Translations under genes and position numbers: made by a program
In this document: one piece after another, positions 4,021 through 33,059 of the stretch
Layout: each line of letters begins with the position of its first letter
Position numbering within the stretch: the first letter of the stretch is position 1
Source of the DNA: a virus
Lineage: Duplodnaviria > Caudoviricetes
Direction: 5' to 3' (one strand)
DNA length: 40,747 nt
IMG/VR virus record: IMGVR_UViG_3300037457_000083
Span: 1 to 40,747 of that record
Notes under the pieces: generated by a model
Seen by the model: only the letters and a program-made list of their open reading frames with translations
What the model was told of the DNA's origin: nothing
Databases searched by the model: none

Positions 4021-7000
4021 GTGGCGGTCTTCGACCCTCCCGAGAGCGATCTGCTCGGGGCGTGGCTGCGCCGCAAGCGTCGCGATGTGCGGCGTGCGCG
4101 TGGCGCGTTGCGGCGGGCGGCGCGCGAGGCGCAGGAGCGCGAGGCGCGCCCGCGTAGGCAGGCGGCCCCACGGCGGCGCGCGCCGTTCGATGCGGGCGAG
4201 TCGGATCTGTTGTCGTCGGGGGCGCTGGCGGACGCGATCCGCCGGTCCGAGAGGGCGCAGCGGCGGTTGCGGCGGTCGCTGCCGGGCACGTTGGAGGCCG
4301 ATCCGCGGTTGCCGCCGCCGGAGCCCCACCAGGCGTTCGGGCCGTTGGAGTCGGGCCGCGAGCCGATCATGGAGTTGTTGAAGGGGGCGGATCCGTCGCG
4401 GGTCGCGCCGTGGTCGGGTACGGGCCGGCTGTCGGCCGCGTCGCCGGTGTTGCCGGAGGGGCATCTGGCCGAGCTGCGGTTCGAGGAGGCGTTGCGAAGC
4501 CAGGGGTCGGGGCCGTCTGGTGTGTTGGCGCCGTTGGCGGCGGTGGCGGATAGCTCGTTCGTGAACAAGGCGTTGCAGGAGATCGGTGGTGCGGGCATCG
4601 CGGCGACCGCCCCGGCGCTGTCCGCGTTCGTCGACCAGACGGACGAGGGCAAGGAGCTGTTGCGCAACGCGGCGCGGGACGCGCAGGAGCTGCCGGCGAA
4701 CGTGGTGCCGTCGACCTACTACACCGGCAAGGCGTTGGTCGACGCGGCGCAGGGCGACACGGAGGGGGTCGAGCAGATCGCGTCGGACTTCGTGAACACG
4801 TCGCCGCTCGCCTTGTTGGCGCAGGGGCGGGTGCGTGAGGCGGGGGAGCAGGCGTATGAGCACCCGTTGCTGACGGGGCTGGAGGTTGGCGGGGTTGGGT
4901 CTGGGTTGTCCTATCTGGGGGCGCGGGCGGCGGGGGTGTCGCGGCGCAGGTTGCCGGATCGGCGGGTGCCGGGCACGAACATCGTGGATCGTCGGTATGG
5001 GCCGGCGGGGCTGTTCGGGGTGTGGAACCAGCGGCGCCATGATGCGGCGGCGAGGGAGCGCTATGACGATCTGGCGGCGCAGGCGGAGCGTCGGGAGGCT
5101 GCGGGGGATCGTGAGGGGGCGGCGTTGAAGCGGCGGGAGGCGGCTAGGGCGCACCCGGATCGGGTGCCTGAGCGGGTTGTGCAGCGGCAGGTGGACACGT
5201 TGCATCAGGGGCGCCATCAGTCGGTGCGCCGGCCGCATAACGCGGCGCGGCGGCGGGAGGTGCGGCGGATCTACAAGTCGGTGCCGCGCAGGCAGGCGCC
5301 GCTGGTTGGGCTGGTCGCGCGCGGCGTCGTGGACGCGGACGCTGGGGATATCCGCGCCTACCTTGGCGAGATCCGGGCGGAGCGGGCGGGCCTTGAGTCG
5401 CGGGCGCAGCGCCAGGCGAACAGGCGGTTGGAGCGCGACATCGCGGCGGCGACGCGTGACGGTGTTAGCGAGGGGGCGCTTGGCGATGCGGCGCGGGCCT
5501 ACGCGACGTTGCGGCGCGGCCAGGACGACGACCTCGTGTTGGGCAGGGACGGCATCGGCGGCGGGATGCTCGACCAGTATGAGGCGCGGATGGCGCGGCT
5601 GATCCCGTATGCGGCCCGCCGGATCGGGGTGGAGCGCATCGACGGTGTGGGGATCGTCCGCCGGTCGGATGGCGACGCGGCGAGGGCTGCGGTGGCGGAG
5701 CTTCGTGAGGCGCAGCGGGAGCAGGGGCGGTCTGGTCCGACGCCGGAGAACCGGGCGCGGGTGACGGATGCGCAGCGGGCGGTGTCGGCCCATGTGCTGC
5801 GGCCCGAGGAGATCGAGGCCCATGCGCGGCACGCGGACCGTGACCCGGACGCGTTCGCGTTCATCTCCCAGGCGCCGCGCGGGCTGGGCGACAGGGCGCA
5901 CAACGTGACGGCGTACAGCGCCCCCGGTGTTTCGCGGCGGTCGCTGACGGGCCGTGCGACGACCGGCGGGCTGATCGACGCGCACCCGGAGCGGATGGTC
6001 GACCAGGCGGTGAAGGCGCAGGGGCTTGTCGATGCCCGTAACACTTGGGCGCGGGCGGTCGCCACGTTCTTCTTGCGTGACCGTGACGGGGAGATCGAGC
6101 GGTTCGAGGGGACGCCGGAGCAGGCGCGCAAGAAGGCTGAGGAGATGGTGTTGGACGAGGACGGCAATCCGATCCCTGCGGCGCACCCGATGCGGGCGGT
6201 GAGGTTGAACCCGTGGATGGGCCGGGAGGGGCAGCTTGCCCGCACGTTGGAGGAGGCCGACCGGGAGGGGTTCGTCGGCGACGATGTGCGTGGGGGCGTG
6301 ACGCCGGTGCAGGAGGCGATCGAGGCGGCGTTGAAGGGCGAGGGGGATGGGGAGTGGGGGTTCGTGCCGGAGGTCGTGGCGGAGCGGATAGCCGAGCATT
6401 CGCGGGTCGCGCAGTCGGGTAGCCCGCTGATGCGCGCGGTCGGGCAGGCGTTTCGGCGGACGGTGCTGCCGTTGTCGCCGGCGTGGCTGACGGGCAACAC
6501 GGTCGAGGCGGCCTTGCGGTCGCTGTTCGAGCAGGCGGGGCCGCGGTCGTGGCTGGACTACCGGCGGGTGTATGTCGAGATGGCGCTGGACGAGGACGGT
6601 GCGGGGACGGTCCGGCGGGCGTTGAGGCGGCTGCCGGACCCGAAGCCGGGGTCGCCGGCGGAGTCGCTGCTGCACATGACGCCGGACGGCCACTACGGCG
6701 GCGGGATGGACACGATGATCCGCACGACGGCGGGCCAGTTCACGAACACGCGGCTAGAGCCGCTGGTGAACGCGTGGTTGCGGCTGTCGAACGCGGGGAA
6801 GGCCGGCCGGGCGGCGGGGAGGGTGCCGCGCGCCTACAGCGCCTATTCGGATTGGGTGATGGGGACGCTTGCGCGGGGGATCGAGGGGCAGGCGACCAGG
6901 GCGATGGCGGGCCGGTACATGCGCCGCCACCTGATGTCGAAGAAGGACCGTTTGAACGCGGAGACGGCGATCTCGCAGGCGGTGCGGGGGATGAAGGAGA

Positions 7001-7716
7001 CGCCGGAGCAGATCGCGATGGGCGAGTGGGTGCGCAAGGTGTACGGCCAGTACGAGTCGTTTTCGCCGGCGATGCGGCGGCTGACGCAGAACTACACGCC
7101 GTTCGTGGCGTGGGGGTTGAACGCGATCAGGTTCCTGTACTGGCACATGCCGAAGGACCATCCGGTGTTGACGGGCCTGTTGGCGTCCCAGCAGCGGATC
7201 GCGGAGGAGTTTCTGGAGGATGAGGGGCTGTCGTATTGGGCGGAGAACGCTTTGCCGCCGTGGTTGCAGGGGTCGGTGCCGCTTCCGGGCGGCGGCCATC
7301 TGCGGTTGATGCGCTACACGCCGTTCGGGTTCGCGGCGGACCCTGCGGGGTGGGTTGCGGGGGTGGTGTTGCCGCAGTACCAGGGGTTCCTGATGACCCA
7401 GCACGGGTTGGACTGGAAGGGCGCCCAGTTGCGCGACAAGGATGGGGAGCCGATCGACGATCCGTACAAGCTGGGGTTGATCGGGGTGCGCGAGACGCTG
7501 TACGCGTTGGTGCCCGGTATCGCGCTCGGGACGCGGCTTGCGGAGGATGGGCCGTCGACGTTGAATCCGTTCCGGCCGGTCGAGCCGCCGCCCGGCTCGT
7601 CGACATCGACTTCAGGCGCGCGGCCCAGCGCGTCCGATATTGCCCGCCAGTCTCAGTCTCGGCGCACGAGCGGTCGCCCGTCGGCGTCGGAGATCGCCCG
7701 CCAGTCTCCCCGCTAG
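4021..7716 (+). CDS. large internal virion / DNA-transfer protein
   Basis: 1231 aa with strong coding bias. Size and position are typical of podoviral ejection proteins. C-terminal duplicated peptide RPSASD/EIARQS. Confidence 0.6.
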   Translation: MAVFDPPESDLLGAWLRRKRRDVRRARGALRRAAREAQEREARPRRQAAPRRRAPFDAGESDLLSSGALADAIRRSERAQRRLRRSLPGTLEADPRLPPPEPHQAFGPLESGREPIMELLKGADPSRVAPWSGTGRLSAASPVLPEGHLAELRFEEALRSQGSGPSGVLAPLAAVADSSFVNKALQEIGGAGIAATAPALSAFVDQTDEGKELLRNAARDAQELPANVVPSTYYTGKALVDAAQGDTEGVEQIASDFVNTSPLALLAQGRVREAGEQAYEHPLLTGLEVGGVGSGLSYLGARAAGVSRRRLPDRRVPGTNIVDRRYGPAGLFGVWNQRRHDAAARERYDDLAAQAERREAAGDREGAALKRREAARAHPDRVPERVVQRQVDTLHQGRHQSVRRPHNAARRREVRRIYKSVPRRQAPLVGLVARGVVDADAGDIRAYLGEIRAERAGLESRAQRQANRRLERDIAAATRDGVSEGALGDAARAYATLRRGQDDDLVLGRDGIGGGMLDQYEARMARLIPYAARRIGVERIDGVGIVRRSDGDAARAAVAELREAQREQGRSGPTPENRARVTDAQRAVSAHVLRPEEIEAHARHADRDPDAFAFISQAPRGLGDRAHNVTAYSAPGVSRRSLTGRATTGGLIDAHPERMVDQAVKAQGLVDARNTWARAVATFFLRDRDGEIERFEGTPEQARKKAEEMVLDEDGNPIPAAHPMRAVRLNPWMGREGQLARTLEEADREGFVGDDVRGGVTPVQEAIEAALKGEGDGEWGFVPEVVAERIAEHSRVAQSGSPLMRAVGQAFRRTVLPLSPAWLTGNTVEAALRSLFEQAGPRSWLDYRRVYVEMALDEDGAGTVRRALRRLPDPKPGSPAESLLHMTPDGHYGGGMDTMIRTTAGQFTNTRLEPLVNAWLRLSNAGKAGRAAGRVPRAYSAYSDWVMGTLARGIEGQATRAMAGRYMRRHLMSKKDRLNAETAISQAVRGMKETPEQIAMGEWVRKVYGQYESFSPAMRRLTQNYTPFVAWGLNAIRFLYWHMPKDHPVLTGLLASQQRIAEEFLEDEGLSYWAENALPPWLQGSVPLPGGGHLRLMRYTPFGFAADPAGWVAGVVLPQYQGFLMTQHGLDWKGAQLRDKDGEPIDDPYKLGLIGVRETLYALVPGIALGTRLAEDGPSTLNPFRPVEPPPGSSTSTSGARPSASDIARQSQSRRTSGRPSASEIARQSPR

Positions 7717-7720: not shown

Positions 7721-7888
7721 CTAGACGAACAGCTCGTACGGCGAGGGGATGCCGATGCCGTGCCAGAACCAGAGCCAGAACAGGACGATGAGGACGATCG
7801 GCCCCCAGATCCACACGCCGGTGCCGTCGTCGCCCGCGAGCCAGTTGATGATGCGGTCGCGGCGGGGGATGTCAACAGGCTTCCTCAC
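7721..7888 (-). CDS. 55-aa single-pass Trp-rich membrane protein (not in ORF track)
   Basis: Manual translation MRKPVDIPRRDRIINWLAGDDGTGVWIWGPIVLIVLFWLWFWHGIGIPSPYELFV. Upstream minus-strand promoter TTGACA-16nt-TACCGT with extended TG, 9 nt before GTG. Confidence 0.7.
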   Translation of the reverse strand: MRKPVDIPRRDRIINWLAGDDGTGVWIWGPIVLIVLFWLWFWHGIGIPSPYELFV

Positions 7889-7918
7889 GGTCGTACGACG
7901 GTAGCAGCGGCGCGGCGG

Positions 7919-8031
7919 CTGTCAACAGACTGTCCACGCGCTACCCACTGACGTGCCCACAGGCAGAAGCCGCGTCAGGCGCGTTGTGCGGGCTCCTGAC
8001 GGCCGTTGTCCACAGGCCCTACTACTTCTAC
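7919..8031 (+). other. oriC-like element: DnaA-box array plus DnaA-trio unwinding module
   Basis: CTGTCAACA 7919, CTGTCCACG 7930, CTACCCACT 7941, GTGCCCACA 7953 (11/11/12 bp period). Perfect TTGTCCACA at 8006-8014, GGCC linker, then CTA CTA CTT CTA at 8019-8030. Confidence 0.6.
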
Positions 8032-8067
8032 CGATTCCGTTGTTTCAGTAGGTAGCGGCCGTCTGGG

Positions 8068-9756
8068 GTGGCTGGGAGGATCAGGCCTGTGGCTAGGCGG
8101 CGCGTGCTCTACGTTGGCGATTCGCTCGGGGTGGGCACTTCGCCTTACCTGGCGCGGCGCAGAGGGTTGCGGGTCGGGGCGGACGTTCGCGGTGGGCGGC
8201 CGTCGTCTGAGGGGCTGTCGGTGCTGTCGCAGAAGTTGCGGCCGAGGCATGACGCGGTGGTGTTCGACCTTGGGACGAACGATCCTGATGCTGGGGCGTT
8301 GCGGCGGTCGGTGCGGCGTGCGGACCGGGTGACTGGTGGCCGGGATCTGCTGTTGGCGACGGTGAACGGGCCGCAGGCTGGCCGGAAGAACAGGTTTCTG
8401 CGGCGCTATGCGCGGCGGAACGACGATGTGGAGCTGGTGCCGTGGGCTCGGCGTGGGCAGGTGGGCCCGGATGGGATCCATGCTGGGCCGGAGGGGTATC
8501 GGCAGCGGGCGGGGATGTTGGCGCGGGCGTTGCGGGGCGGCGGGGCGTCTGCAGGCGTCTCGGCGTCTGCTGCCGCGAACCGGATGGGGCTTGCTCCTGA
8601 CGTTGCGCGGGCGGTCAATCGGCATGGGGGTCGGCCGAAGTTCGACCGTTGGGCGCAGGGGACGTATGGGATCACGGGCCGCCAGTTGCTGGCGCGGCTG
8701 ACGGCTGGTGAGAATGCGGGCCGGATGGGCGGGGATCCGTCGTCGGCGGGGGCGCGTAGCGCGTTCCAGTTCATCCCGTCGACCAGGGAGGATTTCGTTT
8801 CGCGGTTCGGGCTCGACCCGTGGAAGAACGCGGACGAGTCGGCACGGTCGGCGATCATCCATCTGATGGGGCGGGGCGGCGCCTATGGGGGCGGGTTGGC
8901 GGGCTACAACCCTGGGGGCGGGCAGGCGTATGTCGATTACATCTTGGGGCAGCGCGTGGCGGGTTTCCGCGACCAGGGGGTTGGTGTTCGCGGTGGGGGT
9001 GGCGGGTCGGGACGTGGCGGGGGGCGTGGCGCGTCGGTGGTGCCGGCGTCGGTGTCGCGTGAGCAGGTGGTGCCGGGTGGTGCGGGGTTGGCGGGGCTGA
9101 TCTCGGCGTTGGCGGAGGAGCCGCCGCAGGCGCCGTCTGGGGGTGGGCCTACGCGCCCGGAGTTCGCCGCGGGACCGGTGGCGCCGGAGGGGTACCGGCC
9201 TGTCCCTGCCGGGGCGCCGCGGGAGCAGGGCCGGGATGTTGACGAGTTGATGGCGTTGGTGTCGTCGCTGGAGGGGCCGCGGGTCGCACGGTCGACGGTG
9301 ACGCCGGGGCGGGTGGTTGGTGGGGGCCGCCGTGGTCGGGTTGGGCGGGACGGGAAGGGCGGCGGTGGTCTTGGCGGCGTGGAGATCGTGCCGGATGGGT
9401 GGAAGGGCACGAAGCTCGCGATCGAGCCGGCGCGGCGGATCGCCGCAGGGCTTGGGATCGGGGTGTCGTCGGAGAAGCGGCCGACGGAGCGGACGGCGTC
9501 GGGGAACGTGTCCGACCACTTCGAGGGGAACACGTCGGCGTATGCGTTGGATCTGGACACGCCGGGCGACGATTCGCGGGAGGGCCATCGGCTGGCCCGC
9601 CGGATCGCGAAGGCGTACGGGGTGCGGTACCGGGCGAACAGCTACAGCTCGGGCGGCGAGTTCACGGCCGACGGGCGCCGCTACCGGATTCAAATTCTCT
9701 ACGGCTCAGGGGTGGACCACGGGGATCACGTGCATGTAGGCGTGGCGAGGCTCTGA
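8068..9756 (+). CDS. three-domain virion-associated cell-wall hydrolase: SGNH esterase + lysozyme-like transglycosylase + M15-like peptidase
   Basis: SGNH blocks VGDSL, GGR, DLGTND and DGIH. Lysozyme-like GEN...SSAGARSAFQFIPST...AGYNPG. C-terminal SDH...AYALD...HGDHVHVG. Confidence 0.7.
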   Translation: MAGRIRPVARRRVLYVGDSLGVGTSPYLARRRGLRVGADVRGGRPSSEGLSVLSQKLRPRHDAVVFDLGTNDPDAGALRRSVRRADRVTGGRDLLLATVNGPQAGRKNRFLRRYARRNDDVELVPWARRGQVGPDGIHAGPEGYRQRAGMLARALRGGGASAGVSASAAANRMGLAPDVARAVNRHGGRPKFDRWAQGTYGITGRQLLARLTAGENAGRMGGDPSSAGARSAFQFIPSTREDFVSRFGLDPWKNADESARSAIIHLMGRGGAYGGGLAGYNPGGGQAYVDYILGQRVAGFRDQGVGVRGGGGGSGRGGGRGASVVPASVSREQVVPGGAGLAGLISALAEEPPQAPSGGGPTRPEFAAGPVAPEGYRPVPAGAPREQGRDVDELMALVSSLEGPRVARSTVTPGRVVGGGRRGRVGRDGKGGGGLGGVEIVPDGWKGTKLAIEPARRIAAGLGIGVSSEKRPTERTASGNVSDHFEGNTSAYALDLDTPGDDSREGHRLARRIAKAYGVRYRANSYSSGGEFTADGRRYRIQILYGSGVDHGDHVHVGVARL

Positions 9757-10366: not shown

Positions 10367-11071
10367 ATGGCGACCTTGCGAGAGAGACTGGCGGCGCGGC
10401 GTGCGGAGCGTGAGCGTCAGCGGCGTCGCCGCGATGAGTTCTTGGCGCGGATGCGTCGCAACCGGAAGGCGTATCGGACGCTGCGTACGCGGGCGAAGCG
10501 TTCGGCGCGGCTGGTGCGCAGGTTGCGCCGTCGGATCATGGGCGCCCAGGTGCCCGGTGTTGTCGATGGCGGCTGGCATCCCCACGCGACGCGCATCCAG
10601 GTCCAGGGCGGGATCGGCGCGTTCCTGAACGTGCCGGCGAAGCTCGTGTGGCACACGACGGAGGGGTTCGGGCTGCCGGCCTACTCGGGGTCGCATCCGC
10701 ACTTCACGTTGGACCCGGCGTCGGGGAAGCTCTGGCAGCACATCCCGGTCACGTCCGGGGCGATGACGCTCAAAAACGCTTCGGGGGGCGTGGAGACGAA
10801 TCGCGCCCACGCGATCCAGGTCGAGCTGATCGGCTTCGCCGGGGAGACGCCCGACTGGCCGGCGTCCGACTACCGCGAGGTTGCGGAACTGGCCCGGTGG
10901 ATCGAGAAGCACACGGCCGTCAAGCGCCGGTGCTCGGTCAGGTTCGAGGCGCGCCACCACTCGCTGTCTGGCCAGGAGTGGCTGGACTACTCGGGTCACA
11001 TCGGCCACCAACACGTACCCGAGAACGACCATTGGGACCCGGGGCAGTTCCGAATAGGAGAGGTGATCTAG
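10367..11071 (+). CDS. endolysin, N-acetylmuramoyl-L-alanine amidase (Amidase_2-like) with Arg-rich N-terminal helix
   Basis: Motifs LVWHTTEG, PHF, AIQVELIG and HIGHQHVPENDHWDPG. -10 TAGCGT at 10353-10358 upstream of the ATG. Confidence 0.85.
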   Translation: MATLRERLAARRAERERQRRRRDEFLARMRRNRKAYRTLRTRAKRSARLVRRLRRRIMGAQVPGVVDGGWHPHATRIQVQGGIGAFLNVPAKLVWHTTEGFGLPAYSGSHPHFTLDPASGKLWQHIPVTSGAMTLKNASGGVETNRAHAIQVELIGFAGETPDWPASDYREVAELARWIEKHTAVKRRCSVRFEARHHSLSGQEWLDYSGHIGHQHVPENDHWDPGQFRIGEVI

Positions 11072-11661: not shown

Positions 11662-11850
11662 ATGAGTCAGCAGCAGGCGACACAGTTGCTCACGACGCGA
11701 CAGGTGGCGGAGTGGCTTGGGGTTCATGACGAGACGGTGCGGCGGTGGGTGAAGGCTGGGGTGCTGCGGTCTGTGCGGCTTGGCGGTGCGGTGCGGTTCG
11801 AGCGGTCGGAAGTGGACCGCATGATCGAGGAGGCGAAGGGCGATGCCTGA
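11662..11850 (+). CDS. excisionase-family / HTH_17 DNA-binding protein
   Basis: LLTTRQVAEWLGVHDETVRRWVKAGVLRSVRLGGAVRF is the typical Xis/HTH_17 pattern. Confidence 0.85.
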   Translation: MSQQQATQLLTTRQVAEWLGVHDETVRRWVKAGVLRSVRLGGAVRFERSEVDRMIEEAKGDA

Positions 11851-12790
11851 CGAGCCGACTGTGCAGGACGTGCCCGCAGAGGCCCCTGGGAGCCCGCCTG
11901 ACGCCACGGACGGGGTTGGGGCGGCTGACGCTACCCCTGGCCCGTCTGGGGCGGTAGAGGGGCCGCAGACGCTCGCTGGCGGGCGGTTCCCGGTGGAGGC
12001 GCTGCGGGACGGCGCGCGCGAGTTGCGGCGGCCGTTCACGGCGTACGCGGTGAAGTTCAAGGTACAGGCGACGTGGCCGCAGGGATCCCCTGCGACGGCG
12101 TTGGTGGTGCCGTACATCGACGCGCGGCTGGTGTCGGAGCGGCTGAATCTCGTGCTGCCGCATCTGTGGCACGACCCGGAGTACGTGTCGGGCCAGGACG
12201 GGACGCTCGTGTGCAGGCTGACCGTGGACGGGACCACCCGTCAGGACGTGGGGTCGGGCTACAAGGGCAAGGGCCTCTACTCGGACGCGTTCAAGCGGGC
12301 GGCGGTGAAGTTCGGGGTTGGGGTGTCGCTGTACGCGGTCCCGAAGATCGTGTTGGAGAAGAAGAATGGTGGGGTCAAGGAGACGGCGGCGGGCGGGAAG
12401 AAGACGTTGAAGTTGACCGACCAGGGTGACCGCGAGTGCCGTGAGCTGTACCAGCGGTGGCTTGATGCGCATGGTGCGCAGGCGTTCGGGCCGCCGCTCG
12501 ACCATGGGGACGTTGAGGGTGCGGCTGGGGATGTTGAGGCGGAGGCCGAGCCGGTGGCCCAGCAGCGGCCGGCGGAGCCCGCCCCGGCGGCGTTGGATGA
12601 CGAGGAGGCGTTGCGGCTGGTGGACGAGATCCGGTCGAAGTACGACCGGTTGCGCGAGGCGGACCGTGAGGTGTTGCCGCCGGCGCAGTTCAACTCGTGG
12701 ATGCAGCAGTCGCAGCATTCGCACCAGTTGCTGGTGCGGTTCTCGAAGCATCTGGACCAGTTGGTCGAGGAGGCGTCCGATGGCTCCTGA
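11843..12790 (+). CDS. Rad52/Rad22-family (Sak-like) single-strand annealing protein
   Basis: Motifs LRRPF, VPYIDARLVSERLN, CRLTVDGTTRQDVG and KGLYSDAFKRAAVKFGVGVSLY. Confidence 0.85.
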   Translation: MPDEPTVQDVPAEAPGSPPDATDGVGAADATPGPSGAVEGPQTLAGGRFPVEALRDGARELRRPFTAYAVKFKVQATWPQGSPATALVVPYIDARLVSERLNLVLPHLWHDPEYVSGQDGTLVCRLTVDGTTRQDVGSGYKGKGLYSDAFKRAAVKFGVGVSLYAVPKIVLEKKNGGVKETAAGGKKTLKLTDQGDRECRELYQRWLDAHGAQAFGPPLDHGDVEGAAGDVEAEAEPVAQQRPAEPAPAALDDEEALRLVDEIRSKYDRLREADREVLPPAQFNSWMQQSQHSHQLLVRFSKHLDQLVEEASDGS

Positions 12791-13379
12791 CCGGATCAAC
12801 GTGCTGCCGTACGGTGTCGTGGAGGGCGACGGCGCGGAGGGCGCCTACGTCCGCGCCGACATCGCCGTCGCGGCGTGGAAGGCGCTTGCGCGGTTCGGCC
12901 GCCACACACCTGAGTGTCCCGCCCCGGTCGGGCTCGGCTGCGACTGTGGGTGGGCGGAGCTGCGTGCGAGGCTTAGAACTTCACCCGACGACCCCGCCCC
13001 ACCTGACCCTCCCGGGGCGGGGGTAACAAGCGGCCGTCCTTCGGGCGGTGCGGCGGAATCCATCCCTCCGGCGCCGGGTGACCTAGCTGGCCGGGTCCGT
13101 GGCAGGGCCGACTTCCCCTTGGGCCTCGCGGACCCGGCCGAACACGTTGACCTTGACGATGTGCGCCACGACCTGTTGTGCCTGTTGGGCTCCTACGAGC
13201 AGCCGGGCCAGGACCCGCCCGAGGTCGACCAGTTGTACGGGCAGATGCTCCCGACGCCGCGGTGGGCGGTGCAGGAGGCTCTGGACGCGCTGGTCGAGGA
13301 CGGTGAGGTCGACACGTGGAAGATCCATAGGCGGCCCGTGCCGGCGGCGCGTTGGTACCGCCTCGTGGAGGTGGCGTGA
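12780..13379 (+). CDS. hypothetical protein (Zn-binding H/C motif, C-terminal winged-helix-like region)
   Basis: RBS GGAGG; HTPECP...CDCG; VQEALDALVEDGEV. Confidence 0.5.
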   Translation: MAPDRINVLPYGVVEGDGAEGAYVRADIAVAAWKALARFGRHTPECPAPVGLGCDCGWAELRARLRTSPDDPAPPDPPGAGVTSGRPSGGAAESIPPAPGDLAGRVRGRADFPLGLADPAEHVDLDDVRHDLLCLLGSYEQPGQDPPEVDQLYGQMLPTPRWAVQEALDALVEDGEVDTWKIHRRPVPAARWYRLVEVA

Positions 13380-13555
13380 TGGTGCCGTGGATCGTGATCG
13401 TCGCCGGGCTGGGGGTGCTCGCGGCGCTTGGTGTGTGGTGCCTGTTCGAGATGGCGCAGCACGCGGACCGCTCGGACATGGACGCCCGTCGGCGTGAACG
13501 TGCCCGCGAGGACGCGGCGATCCCGCTGCATTCGGAGAGGCCGCGGCATGGGTGA
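13379..13555 (+). CDS. small membrane protein
   Basis: Coupled start and N-terminal hydrophobic helix. Confidence 0.5.
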   Translation: MVPWIVIVAGLGVLAALGVWCLFEMAQHADRSDMDARRRERAREDAAIPLHSERPRHG

Positions 13556-13623
13556 CGCGCTGCTGATCGTGGGGTGGCTGTTGCTGTTGGGGCGGCTGTG
13601 GTGGGTTGAGGTCGGGAGGCACC

Positions 13624-13785
13624 TTGCCGGCTCGTAGGCTTCCTGTGGGCCGTCTGGTCGCTGACGTTGATCGTGCGCGTGCGCGGCAGGCGCGGCTTGC
13701 TGCTAGGGCGGCGCGGCAGGAGGCGGCGGCCAGGTTGGCGGTCCGGCCGGCGGGTGCGGTGCGGGTGCGTCGTGCCGGCGACTGA
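13624..13785 (+). CDS. small Arg/Ala-rich hypothetical protein (not in ORF track)
   Basis: GGAGG RBS before TTG; 53 aa MPARRLPVGRLVADVDRARARQ.... Confidence 0.4.
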   Translation: MPARRLPVGRLVADVDRARARQARLAARAARQEAAARLAVRPAGAVRVRRAGD

Positions 13786-14938
13786 CCCGCGCAAGCTGGC
13801 GCCCGTCGAGCCGGTCGACCTTCCGGCCCGGCTGTCGCAAACGCTGCTGCGCCACTTCGACCGTTGCGCCCGTTCCGGCTACCTGTACATGAAGCATGGG
13901 GGCGGGGTGCCGTCCCCGGCGATGGCCAGGGGGACGGCGTTCCACCTGTTCGCCGAGCGCGCTACCCGGCTGCTGGTCGAGGAGAGCGAGCCGAGGTTGC
14001 CGTATGACGTTGGGCGCGGGTTGATGGTCGAGGTGTTCGGCGAGGTCGACGTGCCCGTCGCCGAGCACGACCGTTTGCGGCAGATGGCCTACCACTGGTG
14101 TGAGGGGTTCGCGATCGACCCGGACAAGGTGGTCGCGGTCGAGCAGAAGATGGTCCTCGACATCGGCGGTTGGACCGTGTCGGGGAAGGTCGACTACGCG
14201 GAGCTTGCGGACGGGTTGTGCGCGGTGCGGGACTACAAGACGACGTTCAACCTGCCGGCCGTCGGGGACGTGGCGGTCGACGTTGGCGACGGCCGTCTGG
14301 CGCCGAGGGCGTTCCAACTGGTGCTGTATGTGCTGCTGCTGGCCTTCGGCCGGCCGGTGCGCGACGGTGGCGAGGTCGACCCGTTCCCGTTGGCCGGTGC
14401 GGCTGAGGCGTTTGACGCGTCCGAGGTGTACCCCGCCTACCTGCACGACGACGGGTTGCCGATGCGCGGCGGGGTGGTCGTGAAGGCGGAGCTTGCCGAC
14501 CACCTTGCGTCGGTGGAGGCGCTGGTCGCCCGGTTCGCCCGTGCGGCCGGGGCGTGGGAGTTCTCGGCGATGGACGGGCCGCACTGCGTGGAGTGCCCGG
14601 CCAGGCGCGAGTGTCCGCTGCCGGAGCATCTGCGCGACTTCCGTGGCCGGATCAACACGCCGGACGAGCTGTCGGAGGCCGCCCGCCTGCACTTCAAGCG
14701 CAAGGACGAGTTGGCGGCGGATTGGCGGGAGATCCGGGCGACCGCGGGGGTGTTGGCGCCGGTGCCTTTGGGCGACGGGTTCGAGCTTGCGTTCGTGTCG
14801 GAGGAGAAGCGGACGGTGGACCGTGATGGGATGGCGGCTGCGGCGGTCGAGGCGGCCGCCTACGGCACGCCGTTCGACCCGGACGACTTCGTGAAGGTCA
14901 CGACCTCGACGCCGTTGAAGCGGAGGCGGAGCGAGTGA
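13772..14938 (+). CDS. PD-(D/E)XK RecB/Cas4-like exonuclease with Fe-S cysteines
   Basis: LSQT...RC, RGTAFH, VEQKM, GKVD, RDYKT, FQLVLY and HCVECPARREC. Partner of the annealase. Confidence 0.85.
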   Translation: MPATDPRKLAPVEPVDLPARLSQTLLRHFDRCARSGYLYMKHGGGVPSPAMARGTAFHLFAERATRLLVEESEPRLPYDVGRGLMVEVFGEVDVPVAEHDRLRQMAYHWCEGFAIDPDKVVAVEQKMVLDIGGWTVSGKVDYAELADGLCAVRDYKTTFNLPAVGDVAVDVGDGRLAPRAFQLVLYVLLLAFGRPVRDGGEVDPFPLAGAAEAFDASEVYPAYLHDDGLPMRGGVVVKAELADHLASVEALVARFARAAGAWEFSAMDGPHCVECPARRECPLPEHLRDFRGRINTPDELSEAARLHFKRKDELAADWREIRATAGVLAPVPLGDGFELAFVSEEKRTVDRDGMAAAAVEAAAYGTPFDPDDFVKVTTSTPLKRRRSE

Positions 14939-21845: not shown

Positions 21846-23643
21846 GCTGACGACAGACGAGCGGGCCGGGCTGGTCGAGCGGCTGCGGAGACAGGCCGAC
21901 TTGCAACTCCCTTACTCGGGCTGTGGGCCATTGCTGGACGAGGCTGCGAATGCCCTGGCTGCCCCTACCCTTTCCCGTGAGGGGCAGATCGAGCGGGTAG
22001 AGAGAGCCCTGGGTCTTAGTCTTGGCCCAGGCCGGTCGGTGGATGCCTGGGTGCTTGCCGAGGTGGCAGTGGATGCTCTGGCCGGGGTTCCGCAGACCGG
22101 CCGTGAGGGACTGGCGGCCGAGCTGAGCAAGGTGTTGCGTGATGCCGACGACTTGGATCGGGACGCGAATCCCCCGGATGGGTCGCCGTATTCGACGGTC
22201 GATGTTGAGGTGCGGCTGATCGAGCGGGCCATTGATGCTCTGGCTGGGGCTGCCCTCCCACCAGAGCAGAGGGGTGAGTTGCAAGCGATTCGCTCGGCGA
22301 CGCGCAAGCTAGACAACCTGCTGCGGCAGAACCACTACCTGCCGACTCCGATGCGGAGTCAGGCGGTCGGGTTCCTTGACGGAATTCGGACGGCGCTTGA
22401 CGCCTACAGCATCGACGCCTCCACCGGGGAGCCCGGCTGCCCGTGTGGCTCCGGCCGGATGGGCGACTGCGACGACTGCGAGACGGCCGTGGGCGGGGAG
22501 CAGGACGCCTCCACCGGGGAGCGGTCGGAGCCTCCACCGCTGGAAGGCGATCCCGGTTCGCCTTCTACCTGGCGGCCGGGGTTTGCGGGTGGCGCAACAG
22601 TTGAGGGATCCGCAAACCCTCCGCAAACTAGCGGGGAGCGGCCGGGCCTAGCAGCAGCGCTGGCCGATCTTGCTGACAAGCATCATCGGACGGTAAGGGG
22701 CTCGCGGAAGCATGACCCCGAGCGGATCGAGGACTTCCGTGACTGCCCATGCCTGACCTGCAAGGCGGCTGCTGCGGCCCTCGCCGGGGAGCGGCCGGGA
22801 CCTAACAAGGATGCTGTTGGGAGTGCGCGGCCGGGTGTTGTCGAGGGGGAGCGGGACGCCTCCCGGGACGGGAGGGTCGCCAAGGTGTGGCGCGGCGACG
22901 GTGACCGAGAGATCACGGTCGGTCCCGACGGGGCGGTCGCGATGCGGCAGGAGGGTGTGGGGGAGATAGCGATGTTGTTGCCGCTTTCGTTTCGGCGGGC
23001 GGCTGCCGAGATCTTGGATTCGGGGCGGGACGCCTCCCCGGCCGAGCCGCCCCGGCCGGTCGCTACCGAGCGTCGAGGCGATGGTCTGTTCGCCTCTTTT
23101 CCTGTCCGACAGGGCGAAGGGGAGCTGACTTCCGAGCGCATCAAGGGTGCGAGCGTCGCTTGGCATGCCCTCATAGCCGAGCGTGATCGGCTGGGGCGCG
23201 AGCTTCGTGAGGCGGTCGCCAGGGCCGAGAGAGCCGAGGGCGAGATCGAGCAGCTTCGTGGGGCTGAGGCGCGGGGCCGTGGCCAGGTGTTGGGGTGGCT
23301 GCGCAACCCGGAGGTAAGGCGAGAGGTCGCGGCGGCGCTGCGCCCGTTCATCGCCTGGCAGGGCAACCCGGGCGACGTGAACGCGTCGAACGGTGCGCAC
23401 ACGGTGCTCGCGCTGCTTGAGGACCGTCTGGGCGCCCTACCAGAGGGAAGCGACGGGCGGCAGGAGGCGATAGACGAGGTGGTGTCGGCGTGGCGCGATT
23501 CGGCCTACGTGGGCGGCCCGTCGGAGCGCGACTGTGCGCGGCTGACGACGGACAAGCTTGAGCCGTTCGCCACGCCCGATCCGCAGGGCGTCGGGCGGGC
23601 CGACGCTGCCGAGACGAAGGAAGGCGCGGATGACGTTGCCTGA
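21835..23643 (+). CDS. mosaic modular hypothetical protein (Ead/Ea22-like architecture)
   Basis: GGAGG RBS; internal repeated linkers (DASTGE, GERPG, RDAS), Cys clusters and a coiled coil. Confidence 0.55.
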   Translation: MDGELTTDERAGLVERLRRQADLQLPYSGCGPLLDEAANALAAPTLSREGQIERVERALGLSLGPGRSVDAWVLAEVAVDALAGVPQTGREGLAAELSKVLRDADDLDRDANPPDGSPYSTVDVEVRLIERAIDALAGAALPPEQRGELQAIRSATRKLDNLLRQNHYLPTPMRSQAVGFLDGIRTALDAYSIDASTGEPGCPCGSGRMGDCDDCETAVGGEQDASTGERSEPPPLEGDPGSPSTWRPGFAGGATVEGSANPPQTSGERPGLAAALADLADKHHRTVRGSRKHDPERIEDFRDCPCLTCKAAAAALAGERPGPNKDAVGSARPGVVEGERDASRDGRVAKVWRGDGDREITVGPDGAVAMRQEGVGEIAMLLPLSFRRAAAEILDSGRDASPAEPPRPVATERRGDGLFASFPVRQGEGELTSERIKGASVAWHALIAERDRLGRELREAVARAERAEGEIEQLRGAEARGRGQVLGWLRNPEVRREVAAALRPFIAWQGNPGDVNASNGAHTVLALLEDRLGALPEGSDGRQEAIDEVVSAWRDSAYVGGPSERDCARLTTDKLEPFATPDPQGVGRADAAETKEGADDVA

Positions 23644-24119
23644 GCCGCTGTCGGCTGCCGAGATGTGCGAGTACGCCGGCCACGAGTGGGGCGACGCCGG
23701 GGGCGGGCTCCGTATCTGCTTGGTCTGTGAGGCCGAGGAGTGGGCCGAGACGAAGGGGGACGACGATGGCGACGACTGAGCGGCCAGACATCGTGGCGCG
23801 CGAGTGGGAGTACTTCCCCGTGCCGGACGGCGAGTCGTTCGTCGACAAGGACGGCGACGAGGTGGTCGGCTGGCATCCTCGCCATGAGGGCCAGGACGAG
23901 CTTGCGCTGCTCGCCGAGTTCGAGGCGTTTTACGAGGATGGGCCGTTGGAGCTTCGTCCGATCCTCGTGCGGGATGCGACCGAGGTCGAGTGCCGGATCA
24001 ACGGCTGGGACGAGGGCGCCTTCGTGCGCTGCACGACGCGCGCCAAGGCCCCGCGGCCGATGTGGCAGGTCGTCGTCGGTCGGGCCGCTGCCGGGGTAGA
24101 GGGAGACGACGGGACATGA
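23630..24119 (+). other. two small hypothetical genes (23630-23779 with C..GH.W...C..C motif; 23766-24119)
   Basis: Coupled starts with RBSs. Confidence 0.55.
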
Positions 24120-25068: not shown

Positions 25069-25648
25069 ATGGGCGGGACTGACCGCACCGAGACGGAGCG
25101 GTGCCGCCACTGTGGCCGCGAGACGAAGCACTATTCGGAGGTCGCCCCGAACGATCCGGCGATGGACTGTGGCGGGGATTGTTGGGGGTGTGTGGCGGCG
25201 TGCGAGCGGTGGTTGAGGAGCTTGGATTGGCGACGGCGAGGAGGAAAAGCCCGTGGCGGGTGAGGCGGTCCCCCCGATCCCCGAGTTGGCCGTGGAGCGG
25301 TTGGCGAAGGATCTCGCCGCCGAGGACATCCGGGAGTACGCGGAGCGCAGCGGCGAGTCCGTCCCTGATCCTCGCGAGGAGTGGGAGTCGGGCTCCGACT
25401 CCGACAGTGAGGCTTACCGTGATGCGTGGCGCGCGGCGGCTCGCCAGCAGTTCGTCAACACCGCCCCGGCGATCCTTGAGGGCCGGGTAGAGGCGGTAGC
25501 GCGAGCGCTGTTCGAGCAGCGCAAGGCGGGCGGCGAGCTTGGCGGGGTCATGGGCCGCATCGTTGGCGAGTGGGGCGGACTGGCGGTCGATGAGCGCGGG
25601 GAGTGGTGCGAGTTGGCCGGCCGGCTGTTGGGCATCGAGGAGGACTGA
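25069..25648 (+). other. two hypothetical genes (25069-25263 Cys-rich; 25253-25648)
   Basis: RBSs and overlap coupling; CRHC...DCWGC in the first. Confidence 0.55.
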
Positions 25649-25689
25649 CGCTACTGTCTTACGTCCCGTGTGCGGCGTACAGTCGCGGC

Positions 25690-26250
25690 ATGGGATCTAG
25701 CACCCTCTCAGCGGTGTCCTCCGGGCCGCTCGCGCCTCTGGCGGCTGAGCCTGGGCTGTTCGACCCGACGGTCCCCCCGGAGCGGCAGGAGGGCTCCTGT
25801 GTGTGGGGGGTTGACTGTTCCTCGAAGCGTGTCGCGGTCGCGGTCGACGGGGCGCCGCCACGGACGTGGGTCAAGTCGTTCACCTACTACGAGGAGACCG
25901 GCCTGCGACTCGGGGCGATCTATGCGGAGACGGTCGGGCTCGCGCGGGAGGTGGCGCGTGAGACGGGGCTGCCGGATCTGGTGGTGGTGGAGCAGCCGAC
26001 GGGGAAGACGCCGGCGCCGGTGTTGATGTACGCGACGGGTGTCGAGATCGCGGCGCTTGCGACGTTGGGGGTGTCGGTGCGGCTGATCGCTGTCATGACG
26101 TGGAAGCAGCGCGCGGTCGGGCATGGGCACGCGAAGAAGCCGCAGATCATGGAGTGGGCTCGGCGGCGGGGCTACACGGGGCGTTTGGAAGACGAGGCCG
26201 ACGCGTTGGGGATCGCTGTGGGCGGCCGGTCGCTGTTCGGCGTGGGTTGA
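25690..26250 (+). CDS. RuvC-like Holliday junction resolvase
   Basis: WGVDCSS, VVVEQP, TWK...GHGHAKKPQI and DEADALGIA. Leaderless -10 TACAGT 6 nt upstream. Confidence 0.85.
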   Translation: MGSSTLSAVSSGPLAPLAAEPGLFDPTVPPERQEGSCVWGVDCSSKRVAVAVDGAPPRTWVKSFTYYEETGLRLGAIYAETVGLAREVARETGLPDLVVVEQPTGKTPAPVLMYATGVEIAALATLGVSVRLIAVMTWKQRAVGHGHAKKPQIMEWARRRGYTGRLEDEADALGIAVGGRSLFGVG

Positions 26251-26665: not shown

Positions 26666-27363
26666 GTGCGGGTGTGGAAGCTCGGCCGGCACCGTCTCGA
26701 TGACTCCGCGGGCGCGTGGTTCGTGGTGGACCCGGCGGTCGTGACGGTCGGGTCCGCGGACTACGAGGTCGTCGAGGTGCGCGAGGTTGAGCACGCGCTG
26801 GGACGGGATCCGGTCGACGAGGCGCAGGACGGCGCGCAGAGCACCGACCAGACGCTGCTGCTGGCGGCCGACGAGCTGGCGAGCCTGGCGCTCGCCTTCG
26901 CGAAGGGCGGTGTGCCGGCGTACGCGAAGGACGCCGCGATGGCCGCCCGGATGTGCCTCGAAGCGCGCAGGGCGTGGGCCGACGAGTGACCAACATGGCC
27001 GAGGGTGTCGGCCGGATCGCGGACGCGGCCGCAGTGTTGGCCGCGGACGTCCGGCGGCGCCGTGAGGCCGAGGTGGAGGCGGAGCGGGAGCGGCTTGCCG
27101 CGACCCGCCCGCCGTCCACTCTCTCCGGGGTCGCGTTCATCGCAGCGATCCCCGGCTACGCGGCCCAGTGGACCAAGGTCGTGCCGCAGGAGTACTGGCG
27201 AAGGGACGGCGCCGACGCCGTGGTGTCGTGCGTCTGCGGCGCCGAGGCCCGCGCGGTCCCGCACATCCCGTGCGAGTGCTCGTGCGACCGGTTCTTCCTG
27301 TGGACGGGCCAGACGGTGCGGGTCGCGCAGTACCCGGGCTGGCGTGACCTCCCCGACGACTGA
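26666..27363 (+). other. two hypothetical genes (26666-26989; 26986-27363 with CxC...CxCxC cluster)
   Basis: Coupled ORFs. Confidence 0.55.
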
Positions 27364-27928
27364 CGCGCTGTGGTGGATGCTCGCCGGCCCAGGGTGGCTG
27401 GCCGTTCAGTCGACCCGGGGCCGCCACTGGCTCGCCCCCGCCCACTTCGAACGGTGGCGGCGCCTCGCCGACACACAGACATGGGACGGCGACCTGGCCG
27501 TCTACCTGTGCCCGTGGCTTGACCGCGGATCGTTCCTGCACCCCGCAAGGTCGGGGGTGGTGTGGGCGCACCTTGAGTCCGGCGACTCGTGCGCCCGCCT
27601 AAGCCGTTTCAGGGTGAGGCCGACGCTGGTGGTGTCTGAGGGCGGGTCGGTGCGCCGCACGGCCGTGTGGGCGCTTACACGGCCGCTAAGCCATGACTGG
27701 TGCGAACGCGCGAACCGCCGGCTCGCCCACTTCTTCCGCGGCCCGAAGAAGCACTGCGGCACGACGGGCCGCCTGTACATCCCGGGGACGGTCCTGCGGG
27801 CCGGGCGCAAACGTCCAGTGCCGGCGTCGGTCGAGGAGTTCAACCCCGACGCGATCTACACCGCCCGCCAGGTCGTCGGGGCGCTCAAGGACGCGCCCGA
27901 CCCCGACGCTTGGCGGCAGGCGTCGTAA
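27344..27928 (+). CDS. RepB'/AEP primase-like protein with degenerate catalytic motifs
   Basis: Scaffold RPTLVVSEGG...AVWALTRP...ANRRLAHFFRG...RLYIPGT resembles RepB_primase, but hhDhD reads WAHLE and the HxYW motif reads RTAVW. Confidence 0.55.
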   Translation: MTSPTTDALWWMLAGPGWLAVQSTRGRHWLAPAHFERWRRLADTQTWDGDLAVYLCPWLDRGSFLHPARSGVVWAHLESGDSCARLSRFRVRPTLVVSEGGSVRRTAVWALTRPLSHDWCERANRRLAHFFRGPKKHCGTTGRLYIPGTVLRAGRKRPVPASVEEFNPDAIYTARQVVGALKDAPDPDAWRQAS

Positions 27929-28086
27929 TGCCATACATGTGGTGCCGCGCGGCAGGGGTGCGCATCCTCGCCATAACGGCCCCGGAAAGACGACGACCCC
28001 GCCGAAGCGAGGCCGCCACCGCCGAGACGTCCACCACGGACGCTACTTCTACCTGTGTGCGCAGCGTAGAAGAAAGCACAGAGTAG
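27928..28086 (+). CDS. 52-aa hypothetical ORF
   Basis: TAATG overlap with the primase-like stop; atypical codon usage. Confidence 0.3.
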   Translation: MPYMWCRAAGVRILAITAPERRRPRRSEAATAETSTTDATSTCVRSVEESTE

Positions 28087-28445
28087 TTGTCCGCCCGGCC
28101 GTATCACGGAGCCGCCTAGCGGCAGCGCCCGGCGACAACGCCCCGCGAGGGGTGACGGGGGACAGGACCGCCCGCCCAACGGCAAGGGACGGACGCACCG
28201 CCGGGAGCGACAGAGCCAGCCAGCAGCAAGGCGTAGGCGGCTACCGGAAGCGTTCGGAACTCGGGTGCCGGGGACCCACCGTCGATCCTCTCAGGGAGCC
28301 GCCATGGCGTGCAGGACGGGCCGCTGGTAGGGATGCCGGGGTATAGGTCAACCTATGGCCGCACGGCGCGGTGGAGCGTGTCCTGTCTGTCCCCATGCAG
28401 AGGTAGCGTAAGACATTCGACCGCTACCGGAAGGGGAAGTTGACC
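28086..28445 (+). ncRNA. candidate large structured non-coding RNA or ssDNA element
   Basis: Multiple nested helices, including CGCCCC-GCGA-GGGGTG (GNRA loop), GTTGTC/GACAAC, long-range GGGGACAG/CTGTCCCC and CACCGC/GCGGTG, ATAGG-TCAA-CCTAT and GGTAGCG/CGCTACC. Confidence 0.5.
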
Positions 28446-28592
28446 GTGCCGATCCAGCATGCGAAGTGCGCGAGGTGTGGGACATCGCTCGGCGGCCGCC
28501 GCGTCGGCGTCGTGAAGTTCGGCGGCCAGACATTCGACTACTACAAGTGTCCTTGCGGCCGTGGGCGCCGCGTGCCGCTTCCGGTCCGGTGA
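28446..28592 (+). CDS. 48-aa Zn-finger protein (not in ORF track)
   Basis: MPIQHAKCARCG...YYKCPCG; purine-rich RBS; GTGA coupling to the next gene. Confidence 0.6.
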   Translation: MPIQHAKCARCGTSLGGRRVGVVKFGGQTFDYYKCPCGRGRRVPLPVR

Positions 28593-31213: not shown

Positions 31214-32455
31214 ATGGCGGCCCGCCCGAAGCGTTCTACGTCGATGCGCCGGGTTGCGGAGGGCATCTACCGGCGCGACTCGGGCAGGTATGTGGTGCCG
31301 ATCTACGATCCGGCGACGGGCAACAAGCGGTATTCGCATCCGCGGGTGCCGCGCGGCGGGTTCGCGACGTTGGAGGAGGCCAGGGCGTTCAAGCGGTGGC
31401 TGGCGGATGACCGTGAGGAGGCTGCTGCGGCGTTGACGTGCGGCGAGTTCGCACGGTCGTGGACGCGCACCCATCCGCGGGGCGAGTCGACGAACCAGCA
31501 CAACGGGGAGCGGGTGCGGGCGTTCGTCAGGGACTTCGACGGGATGTCGGTGCGGGACGTGACGCCGCAGATGGCGAGGTTGTGGACGTTCGGCGGCCCG
31601 GCGCCGAAGATGTTGGAGAAGACTGTTGCCGGCTGGAAGGGCGTGAAGCGCGTGGACGGGGAGCTGGTCGTGCCGTCCCATGAGAGCAACTATCGGGCGG
31701 TCAGGGCGATGTTCAGCGACATTGTGCGCGACGGGGTGCTTGACCGTTCGCCGTTCTCGGCGCTCGGGGTGAGCGAGGGGAAGGGCCGCCGCGACGCGGT
31801 GATGTTGACCGCCGCCGAGCTGGAGCTGCTGGTCGACTGTGCGGGCGAGGAGTGGGGTGTCTACGGGGAGACGGTGGTCGGCCCGATGATCGCTGTGGCG
31901 GCGGGGACGGGGATGCGGCCGGGGGAGCTGCGGGCGATGCGGTGGTCGTGGATCGACTGGGAGGCCGACGCGATCGAGGTGCGCGCCGCGTTGAACGACC
32001 GGACGGGGAAGGAGACGCGGCCGAAGTCGGGTCGCGGGCCTGGCCATACCCGCACCGTGGCGATGTTGCCGATGGTCCGTGAGGCGTTGCGCAAGGTGCC
32101 GCGCGACGCCGAGCATGTGTTCACGACCCAGAACGGCAGTCTGTTGCGCCAGCGGACCCACTGGTACTACTGGAACCCTGTCCGGTCGCGGTTTCACGGC
32201 AGGCTGCCGGCTGGTCGCCGCGAGGTGATCCCCGGCGATTTCGACTGGTATGAGCTGCGCCACTACTTCGGGTCCTACCTTGCGTCGCGCGGGGTGTCGC
32301 CGTACGACATTGCGGACCAGATGGGCCATGTCGACGGCGGTGTGTTGGCCCAGAAGACCTACATTCACACCGAGTCTGAGGATGCTCGCGCACGGGTTCT
32401 GGCGGCCGTGTCGAGGCTCGACGACCCGCCGTCGGTAGCGCGCGAGGGTGGCTGA
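31214..32455 (+). CDS. int: tyrosine integrase
   Basis: GMRPGEL (R), RPKS (K), YELRH, MGH and TYIH (Y); N-terminal arm-binding-like GFATLEEA. Confidence 0.92.
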   Translation: MAARPKRSTSMRRVAEGIYRRDSGRYVVPIYDPATGNKRYSHPRVPRGGFATLEEARAFKRWLADDREEAAAALTCGEFARSWTRTHPRGESTNQHNGERVRAFVRDFDGMSVRDVTPQMARLWTFGGPAPKMLEKTVAGWKGVKRVDGELVVPSHESNYRAVRAMFSDIVRDGVLDRSPFSALGVSEGKGRRDAVMLTAAELELLVDCAGEEWGVYGETVVGPMIAVAAGTGMRPGELRAMRWSWIDWEADAIEVRAALNDRTGKETRPKSGRGPGHTRTVAMLPMVREALRKVPRDAEHVFTTQNGSLLRQRTHWYYWNPVRSRFHGRLPAGRREVIPGDFDWYELRHYFGSYLASRGVSPYDIADQMGHVDGGVLAQKTYIHTESEDARARVLAAVSRLDDPPSVAREGG

Positions 32456-32717
32456 CGGTTGCAAACGCGGTAGCGTCAACCACCGTCGCCCCTAGAAAAC
32501 CCCTGCAAACAGCGCCTTTTGGGTGTCCTGACACGCCGATGTGTGCTGCCCGGGGCGCTGCGGAAGTTAGCGTGTCAGGGCACCCCAAACGGCTCTGGGA
32601 AGCCAAATCGACGTGTCAGGACGTTTCGTGACGCCCCACTCGGTTTGCAGGGGCTTTCCGGCCGGTAGCGGGACGGGGTAGCGGGACGGTAGCGTTGAGC
32701 CGTCCGCGACGGTTGCG
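32434..32717. other. probable attP region
   Basis: Arm-like GGT(A/T)GC(G/A) repeats at 32434, 32457, 32469 and 32664, 32677, 32688, 32711. Nested inverted repeats 32495-32510/32643-32658 and 32517-32536/32570-32589. Confidence 0.65.
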
Positions 32718-32732
32718 AACCTGACCGGCGTC

Positions 32733-33059
32733 ATGGCTGAGGTCTACGCGACGCTCATACCTGCCGGCGAGAAGGTCGAGTTGCACCCGCGTGTCGACGA
32801 CCGTTGGCGCGGCGGCGGGACGGGGCCGGTCGCGACCCAGACGGCGGACGATCATGGCACCGCGACGTTCGAGGTCGCCCCGGGCGACTACTGGCTGGTG
32901 TACGCCGGCCGGGCGGTGAAGGTCGTCGCGAAGGGCGAGACGCCGGCGGTGCGCCGCGAGCGGCCTGCGAAGAAGGCGGCGCCTGTGAAGCGTTCGGCGC
33001 CGTCCACGAAGAAGTCGTCCTCGGCGGGTCGTAGGCCCGCTGCCAAGCGGAAGAAGTAG
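32733..33059 (+). CDS. hypothetical protein, small beta domain plus Lys/Ala-rich basic tail
   Basis: TADDHGTATFEVAPGDYWL; PAKKAAPVKRSAPSTKK...KRKK. Confidence 0.6.
   Translation: MAEVYATLIPAGEKVELHPRVDDRWRGGGTGPVATQTADDHGTATFEVAPGDYWLVYAGRAVKVVAKGETPAVRRERPAKKAAPVKRSAPSTKKSSSAGRRPAAKRKK

Follow-up and report, generated by a model that had tools for sequence, protein, structure and literature searches.

A DnaA-box and DnaA-trio element in the virion module of an uncultured temperate phage: a candidate accessory origin opened by host DnaA

The DNA analysed here (the window, 40,747 nt; IMG/VR record IMGVR_UViG_3300037457_000083) belongs to an uncultured temperate phage (Duplodnaviria; Caudoviricetes) of sediment metagenome origin with a GC content of 69%. 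Its gene content includes an intein-containing terminase, an SU10-type portal and capsid, an amidase and, on the + strand, an Erf-like annealing protein (11843-12790) and a PD-(D/E)XK exonuclease (13772-14938), together spanning 11843..14938, a RuvC-like resolvase (25603..26250) and a tyrosine integrase (31214..32455). Short direct repeats and an inverted repeat follow the integrase at 32450-32740, likely the attachment-site region, and the intein lies in the terminase large subunit (33171-35960), which in relatives is free of it. The 3′ end of the window falls inside the capsid gene and the 5′ end inside a gene whose homologues come after the capsid region in relatives. From the syntenic span in 10 of 10 relatives, the missing part amounts to 2.5-3.2 kb of head-tail genes, the module to which the initial annotation had also tentatively assigned it; this gap is small against the CheckV completeness of 66% given for the record. 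The site of interest is part of one 39.6-kb contig with even depth and no variant letters, from a run that may be the source of the DNA; a second run has no coverage of the site. Elsewhere, at 613-1155, the former run includes a lower-depth variant contig with another segment in a 221-aa gene (434-1099).

The element lies in the gap between a leftward gene of 55 aa and a rightward gene that probably starts at 8089. To the left, an open reading frame of 1231 aa (4021..7716, + strand) has homologues (24-38%) at the same place in relatives and no family match; its position makes a role as internal virion (ejection) protein in a podovirus-like particle likely. Between this frame and the element, the 55-aa hydrophobic gene (7721..7888, - strand; no Pfam match) is transcribed away from the element. 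Small divergent hydrophobic open reading frames are found at the same site in the relatives G008, G022, G023 and G026, and a role in superinfection exclusion is our guess. The right neighbour (8089..9756, + strand) is SGNH-like and lysozyme-like, its homologues being named lysophospholipase L1-like or carrying SLT domains, and it is likely virion-associated; its GTG start at 8089 is deduced from GGAGG at 8075 and the N-termini of homologues. Single-query searches with the neighbour proteins of 1231 aa and 562 aa returned no viral relatives, and a metagenome scan yielded for the most part isolated SGNH domains; neither window-like synteny nor a box-trio match was seen in any of these hits. No GTDB prophage with the portal was found, no GTDB genome contains the exact 22-mer of the element, and when the element was compared by blastn with annotated phages and plasmids, all matches were at chance level. 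The host is probably an actinobacterium, as suggested by GC content and box variant, and may, as a guess on our part, be a member of the Solirubrobacterales. Among the Table S1 entries of PMC8287927 that were compared, neither Conexibacter nor any member of the Thermoleophilia occurs.

The core of the element consists of a perfect proximal DnaA box (8006..8014, + strand), the GC linker GGCC (8015..8018, + strand) and four DnaA-trios on the - strand (8019..8030), which read 3′-GAT GAT GAA GAT-5′. The predicted melting region at 8020..8054 is the least stable 35-mer of the window by nearest-neighbour energy and, with a GC fraction of 0.40 versus 0.69, a joint-lowest-GC 35-mer. The initial annotation had described boxes, inverted repeat, box-linker-trio unit and AT-richer stretch, and all of its coordinates proved correct on re-reading; the count of the perfect box across the genome that it had proposed gives TTGTCCACA once in the window, at 8006. 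This box differs from TTATCCACA by 1 mismatch. Boxes with at most 1 mismatch are not more frequent across the window than expected by chance (6 versus a chance mean of 3.6). It is the combination that stands out: 8019-8030 is the only run of at least four trio-like triplets found in the window, and the composite of a box (at most 1 mismatch), 3-5 nt and at least four trios occurs once in the window and in none of 150 dinucleotide shuffles. The loosest published definition of the basal unwinding system (BUS) is not selective here, with a match in 116 of 150 shuffles.

In PMC8287927, a BUS comprises a box with at most 2 mismatches, a spacer of at most 16 bp and at least 3 trios; for both Bacillus subtilis and Streptomyces coelicolor, Table S1 there gives the linker GGCC, as in the window, and next to it GAT GAT on the lower strand. 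The phage element has its box at a distance of 4 nt, four 3′-NAN-5′ trios (at least three being expected) with GAT nearest the box, a short GC-rich gap of about 4 bp (GGCC), and easily melted DNA at and after the trios. What it does not have is an upstream proximal box 12-13 nt from the trios. The box is single, and no box-like 9-mer is present in the window at -8/-9, where the second proximal box of a tandem would lie. According to PMC8287927, a tandem proximal pair occurs in 57% of origins and the B. subtilis box 12 nt from the trios is required for strand separation, while the published search allows a single box and single-box modules with a 4-nt gap are predicted for Frankia alni and Atopobium parvulum. 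Judged by its layout, the stretch 8006-8030 is a real, non-random module of the oriC unwinding type, as predicted from sequence, on a phage.

Upstream of the core, a distal array of four degenerate boxes (7919..7961, + strand) has its 9-mers at 7919, 7930, 7941 and 7953, spaced 11/11/12, that is, at offsets of -87/-76/-65/-53, in register with the arrays of the relative G074 and of the viral record L061. Mismatches to TTGTCCACA number 2/2/4/2, the box at 7941 having 3 to TTATCCACA. A fifth box-like 9-mer with 2 mismatches (7869..7877, + strand; offset -137), missed by the initial annotation, lies inside the 55-aa leftward gene. Four same-strand boxes with at most 2 mismatches in 140 bp upstream correspond to a Poisson P of 2.5e-6; excluding the two boxes whose minus strand contains TTGACA raises P to 0.004. 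In B. subtilis, according to PMC6669920, an in-phase distal box no less than 44 bp upstream is required as well; in the window, boxes lie in helical phase at 53, 65, 76 and 87 bp, all of them degenerate. An inverted-repeat spacer (7973..8001; arms 7973-7982 and 7992-8001, 9 of 10 positions paired) leads from the array to the proximal box, and an inverted repeat occupies the equivalent position in G074 and L061.

Box 7919 overlaps the TTGACA -35 hexamer of a predicted leftward promoter (7898..7925, - strand), which combines TTGACA at 7925-7920, a 16-nt spacer and an extended -10 at 7906-7898. The consensus promoter scan did not list it; in G008, G022, G023 and G031 a similar -10 precedes the start codon by a few nt, and the predicted leftward transcript is probably leaderless.

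Downstream of the trios, the stretch 8047..8075 (- strand) has the appearance of a decayed mirror half, with out-of-phase reverse trios, a GC stretch and no convincing box, and aligns with the intact reverse half of G074. The spacer TTCCGTT is common to both, and the relative G030 has a similar remnant. An inverted box with 2 mismatches and GGCC (8084..8096, - strand) overlaps the likely GTG start at 8089 and may be coincidence. In the predicted fold the 8006 box may pair with 8084-8096 (9-bp perfect pairing), with z of -0.64 as RNA and +0.48 as DNA. Of a 13-nt inverted repeat with 12 positions paired (7939-7951 and 8045-8057), one arm falls on the weakest upstream box and the other on the decayed reverse trios. 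Two other readings of the repeats were dropped: a structured RNA, the fold being no better than shuffles with no Rfam match, and a dispersed operator family, the 11-nt repeat being confined to this site and absent at other promoters.

The search for replication genes in the window returned neither a helicase (DnaB-type included), a loader or a polymerase nor a known initiator, and no P-loop replication protein. PHROGs, Pfam, NCBIfam and the initiator-like profile gave no match to a cognate Rep in the window, many small genes of which are unannotated, and the site has no iteron direct repeats, the box-like repeats being the only ones. The initial annotation had likewise reported no initiator, helicase, loader or polymerase; it had overlooked a degenerate RepB′-fold (archaeo-eukaryotic primase) gene at 27344..27928 (+ strand), the sole replication-type gene found. 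The predicted model of its product matches PDB 3h20 (E 1e-7, TM 0.59), and there is a match in the ESM Atlas too. The fold is like that of the RepB′ primase, from which the phage protein differs in having neither the DxD and His motifs nor the C-terminal domain and in forming a separate family. We take DxD and His to be the catalytic motifs of RepB′. Both are replaced in the window protein; DxD occurs in 2 of 153 aligned homologues, and both motifs are present in 2 of 153 and in the protein of G024. The RepB′-like family comprises at least 733 sequence clusters and is matched in 10 of 44 records; its basic and aromatic residues are conserved, and it may be the clade's own origin-binding factor. 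The 660-bp gap after the gene (27929-28588) is a candidate second origin or priming site. A stretch of low GC at 28040-28080 repeats 10 nt of the trio tract and has a 7-bp inverted repeat.

An initiator-like protein of about 175 aa is encoded in 10 of 44 records, 9 of them from the sister clade, and the element is present in none of the 10. The label "initiator-like" is our assumption, made on one weak match to Phg_2220_C (E 0.083, 1 of 5). Toprim or intact RepB primase also occurs in 3 of these 10 records. Six near-complete relatives (G029, G031, G036, G038, G044 and G049) have the dead RepB′-like gene, and neither the initiator-like gene nor the element. The clade can therefore replicate without the element, and the lack of an initiator does not prove dependence on DnaA. 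The earlier argument from a missing initiator to host DnaA is weaker than stated, as 6 of the 7 near-complete RepB′-like relatives are without both. These relatives are the chief finding against the element as a necessary origin, since they indicate that the clade can begin replication in another way.

Relatives were collected by scans with the portal, RepB′-like and capsid proteins (27, 5 and 80 loci); 50 of 78 capsid records were searched whole, the remainder being searched separately or scanned as loci. At the syntenic site the element is absent in all eight relatives that span it (G008, G022, G023, G024, G026, G029, G030 and G031), so that the conservation of box and trios there, named beforehand as a check, fails. 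This suggests a sporadic and mobile element that is not the family's origin. The site itself looks like an insertion hot spot; differing long hairpin-containing inserts without an Rfam match are found there in G031 (22007-22505) and G022 (10520-10869).

The same layout does occur at other places in two relatives. In G030 (97% complete), for which neither an integrase nor an initiator-like protein was matched, the sequence just before the portal gene (23880-24102) combines a tandem box with a 4-nt linker and three trios. In G074 (L267:6822-6965) a twin convergent module with a near-palindromic centre directly follows the capsid stop codon, in the order three boxes (11/12 spacing), 13-bp inverted repeat, tandem box, linker, trios, short spacer, reverse trios, linker, box. 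The window follows this order of array, hairpin and box with a broken reverse half, and the twin is the better experimental substrate. As most relatives are without it, the element is likely a portable cassette. The three carriers occupy three separate branches of the capsid tree. The initial annotation had called a location inside the virion module unusual, and this setting recurs in all 3 of them. In total, 3 of 26 records from the window's clade, many of them fragments, carry the element, as does 1 of 7 near-complete relatives; in the sister clade it is 0 of 13 records. Its association with the lack of an initiator-like gene is not significant (3/26 versus 0/13, Fisher P 0.54), and the flanks of the window and G030 show modest similarity (9 and 55 of 2000 shuffles), which is no proof of shared ancestry. 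A further candidate, L320, was dropped as it runs antisense inside a capsid gene, and 12 of 14 records with loose patterns were set aside on the matched string and similar control counts, G074 having been read fully and G049 rescanned.

Similar modules are present elsewhere among viruses. When viral contigs were searched by pattern, 120 loci were listed out of an estimated 360; of the 80 listed loci with a good box, 59 have the 4-nt gap. A further scan yielded 23 loci, and in 4 a reverse half is present. Once redundancy was removed, 42 viral elements remained, whose records are not all independent. Their 82 upstream boxes cluster at distances of 54, 66 and 76-78 bp, counted from the leading proximal box, and three of the four offsets in the window (53, 65 and 76) coincide with these peaks. 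By a loose tandem classifier, 17 of the 42 are single-box forms, 7 of these with upstream boxes, and single-box versions with the same ladder occur in the unrelated viral records L061 and L403. None of 53 neighbouring proteins matched DnaA or DnaN and none of 5 records encodes DnaA; hence the elements checked are not captured chromosomal origins. The records L001, L004, L005, L009, L015, L018, L021, L051 and L054, together with similar records of 4-6 kb, are gut gokushovirus-like genomes, a kind that makes up many of the matches. Such records have a conserved module of several boxes (-62, -74 and -85) and trios beside their own HUH Rep gene, the four annotated ones matching Phage_F, Chlamy_scaf and Rep, which implies that the module need not be a stand-alone origin. 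In L016 (1031-2520) a box-trio module lies directly 5′ of a phage DnaB helicase gene. The literature search, conducted mostly at abstract level and covering few subscription papers, yielded no paper on a phage-borne DnaA-trio module or a phage origin using host DnaA only, and none linking gokushoviruses or Microviridae to a DnaA module.

Based on this dataset, we hypothesize with moderate confidence that 7869-8075 represents an accessory, horizontally gained, mobile origin opened by host DnaA. By analogy with the work on B. subtilis, from which we infer DnaA binding, melting and replication at the element, host DnaA-ATP would bind at 8006, the perfect box, with the phased array upstream raising the local DnaA concentration, and a DnaA filament would engage the four trios and melt 8019-8054. 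Host helicase, primase and polymerase, none of which was found phage-encoded in working form, would then be loaded. Transcription of the leftward gene away from the trios may aid melting, DnaA at box 7919 may repress the leftward promoter, and the later replication into concatemers would fall to Erf, exonuclease and resolvase. In favour of this origin reading are the absence of the composite from 150 shuffles, the linker and first trios identical to those of oriC with the least stable 35-mer adjoining, and boxes at 53, 65 and 76 bp that come near the in-phase series working in B. subtilis from 44 bp (PMC6669920). The copies in G030 and G074, the three capsid-tree branches, the absence of the element from all 10 initiator-like records, the window's lack of DnaB-type helicases and P-loop replication proteins, and the single-box forms elsewhere point the same way. 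Against it stand the absence at the syntenic site (8 of 8), the six near-complete relatives that do without, the Fisher test, the only box being 4 nt from the trios with none at 12 nt, distal boxes with 2-3 mismatches, the decayed mirror half, and a GC skew that has no inflection at the site. The integrase counts against it as well, since the prophage would bring an active copy into the host chromosome. The oriC mimic proposed by the initial annotation gains from the anatomy (linker and first trios as in B. subtilis and S. coelicolor, the viral spacing ladder, the copies in G030 and G074) and loses on conservation at the syntenic site.

Several of these points would also fit other explanations. 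The missing tandem box, the degenerate distal boxes and the mirror half that is broken compared with G074 would be expected of a decaying relic, whose ancestor gained a G074-like twin origin and which is now copied by the route of the element-free relatives, that is, through the dead RepB′-like protein or recombination. Six near-complete relatives do manage without the element, and an integrase is present in the window and was not matched in G030, which has a canonical copy (one case each). We nevertheless consider a relic unlikely, as the proximal box, the linker, the four trios and their spacing are all preserved, as is the low-stability tract, and other elements have single boxes too (17 of 42 by the loose classifier, 7 with upstream boxes). 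The overlap of box 7919 with the predicted -35 and the -10 common to relatives may alternatively indicate a decoy or switch, in which the array binds DnaA and delays host initiation or controls the leftward promoter but does not serve as an origin. A single perfect box would be a poor sponge, though, a decoy would not need linker, trios and melting tract in the right order, and the copies in G030 and G074 are not beside the 55-aa gene, which makes this role distinctly unlikely.

It appears more improbable again that replication starts elsewhere (by the RepB′-like protein, recombination or rolling circle) and that DnaA at the element loads the host helicase on single-stranded DNA, similar to the ABC primosome. 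The gokushovirus-like multi-box modules beside their own HUH Rep, the module directly before the phage DnaB gene in L016 and the predicted pairing of the 8006 box with 8084-8096 agree with such a site, and DnaA can load DnaB from a single box in a hairpin, as described in PMC6127211. On the other hand, the fold is no better than shuffles (z as above), and a phased distal array makes sense on duplex DNA. Chance, or promoter or operator repeats of a phage regulator that resemble DnaA boxes, would fit with TTGACA being present on the minus strand of two upstream 9-mers, with a 3′ extension common to the repeats and with the several helix-turn-helix proteins encoded by the phage. Given that none of 150 shuffles reproduces the composite, that the 11-nt repeat is not found at other promoters, that Rfam gives no match and that the same order and spacing recur in G074, G030 and unrelated viruses, we regard this explanation as highly improbable.

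If the mobile-origin reading is extended to other phages, a wider picture may be drawn, which we offer tentatively and consider rather doubtful. Phages would trade a protein-free oriC cassette of about 200 bp, a plug-in for any gap in the virion operon that replaces initiator and primase genes, with host DnaA alone starting replication. In the integrating phage described here the cassette would be tuned down (single box, silenced mirror half, overlap with the divergent promoter) so that the prophage is not a second chromosomal origin, and in gokushoviruses DnaA would be the missing helicase loader. Mobile elements use DnaA boxes as helpers of their own initiator. A functional element would explain how some phages without replication genes are copied, and would tie phage replication to the DnaA-ATP state of the host. 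The elements represent natural minimal origins, and the single-box, tandem and twin variants with their shared 54/66/77-bp ladder suit the published strand-separation assay. Such variants could show whether a box 4 nt from the trios replaces the 12-nt box, and how two helicases load in opposite directions.

Among known DnaA systems, the iteron replicons P1, F, RK2 and pSC101, at which DnaA boxes assist Rep according to PMC4980987, are alike in being mobile elements with host DnaA sites at the origin. They need their own Rep and iterons, whereas at the phage element neither was found and the trios directly follow the box. Like the A-site of the ABC primosome, the phage element has a single strong DnaA box, possibly in a stem, and would load a helicase through DnaA with no initiator of its own. 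The A-site forms a hairpin of single-stranded DNA; in the phage element the 9-bp pairing of the box would belong to a predicted fold with z of -0.64 and +0.48, and trios and a phased array are present. The predicted BUS of S. coelicolor is similar in linker, number of trios (four) and high-GC setting, and differs in its tandem boxes and its third and fourth trios. In comparison with the BUS of B. subtilis (incC boxes 6/7), the phage element lies between virion genes and not beside dnaA/dnaN, being flanked on a continuous contig by phage genes with homologues in related phages, and has one proximal box instead of a tandem pair. It also differs in its four trios, a short and moderately AT-rich tract, a mirror-half remnant and positions that vary among relatives. 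Both systems share the box, the GGCC linker, GAT-led trios, a melting tract and co-oriented, phased distal boxes at least 44 bp upstream.
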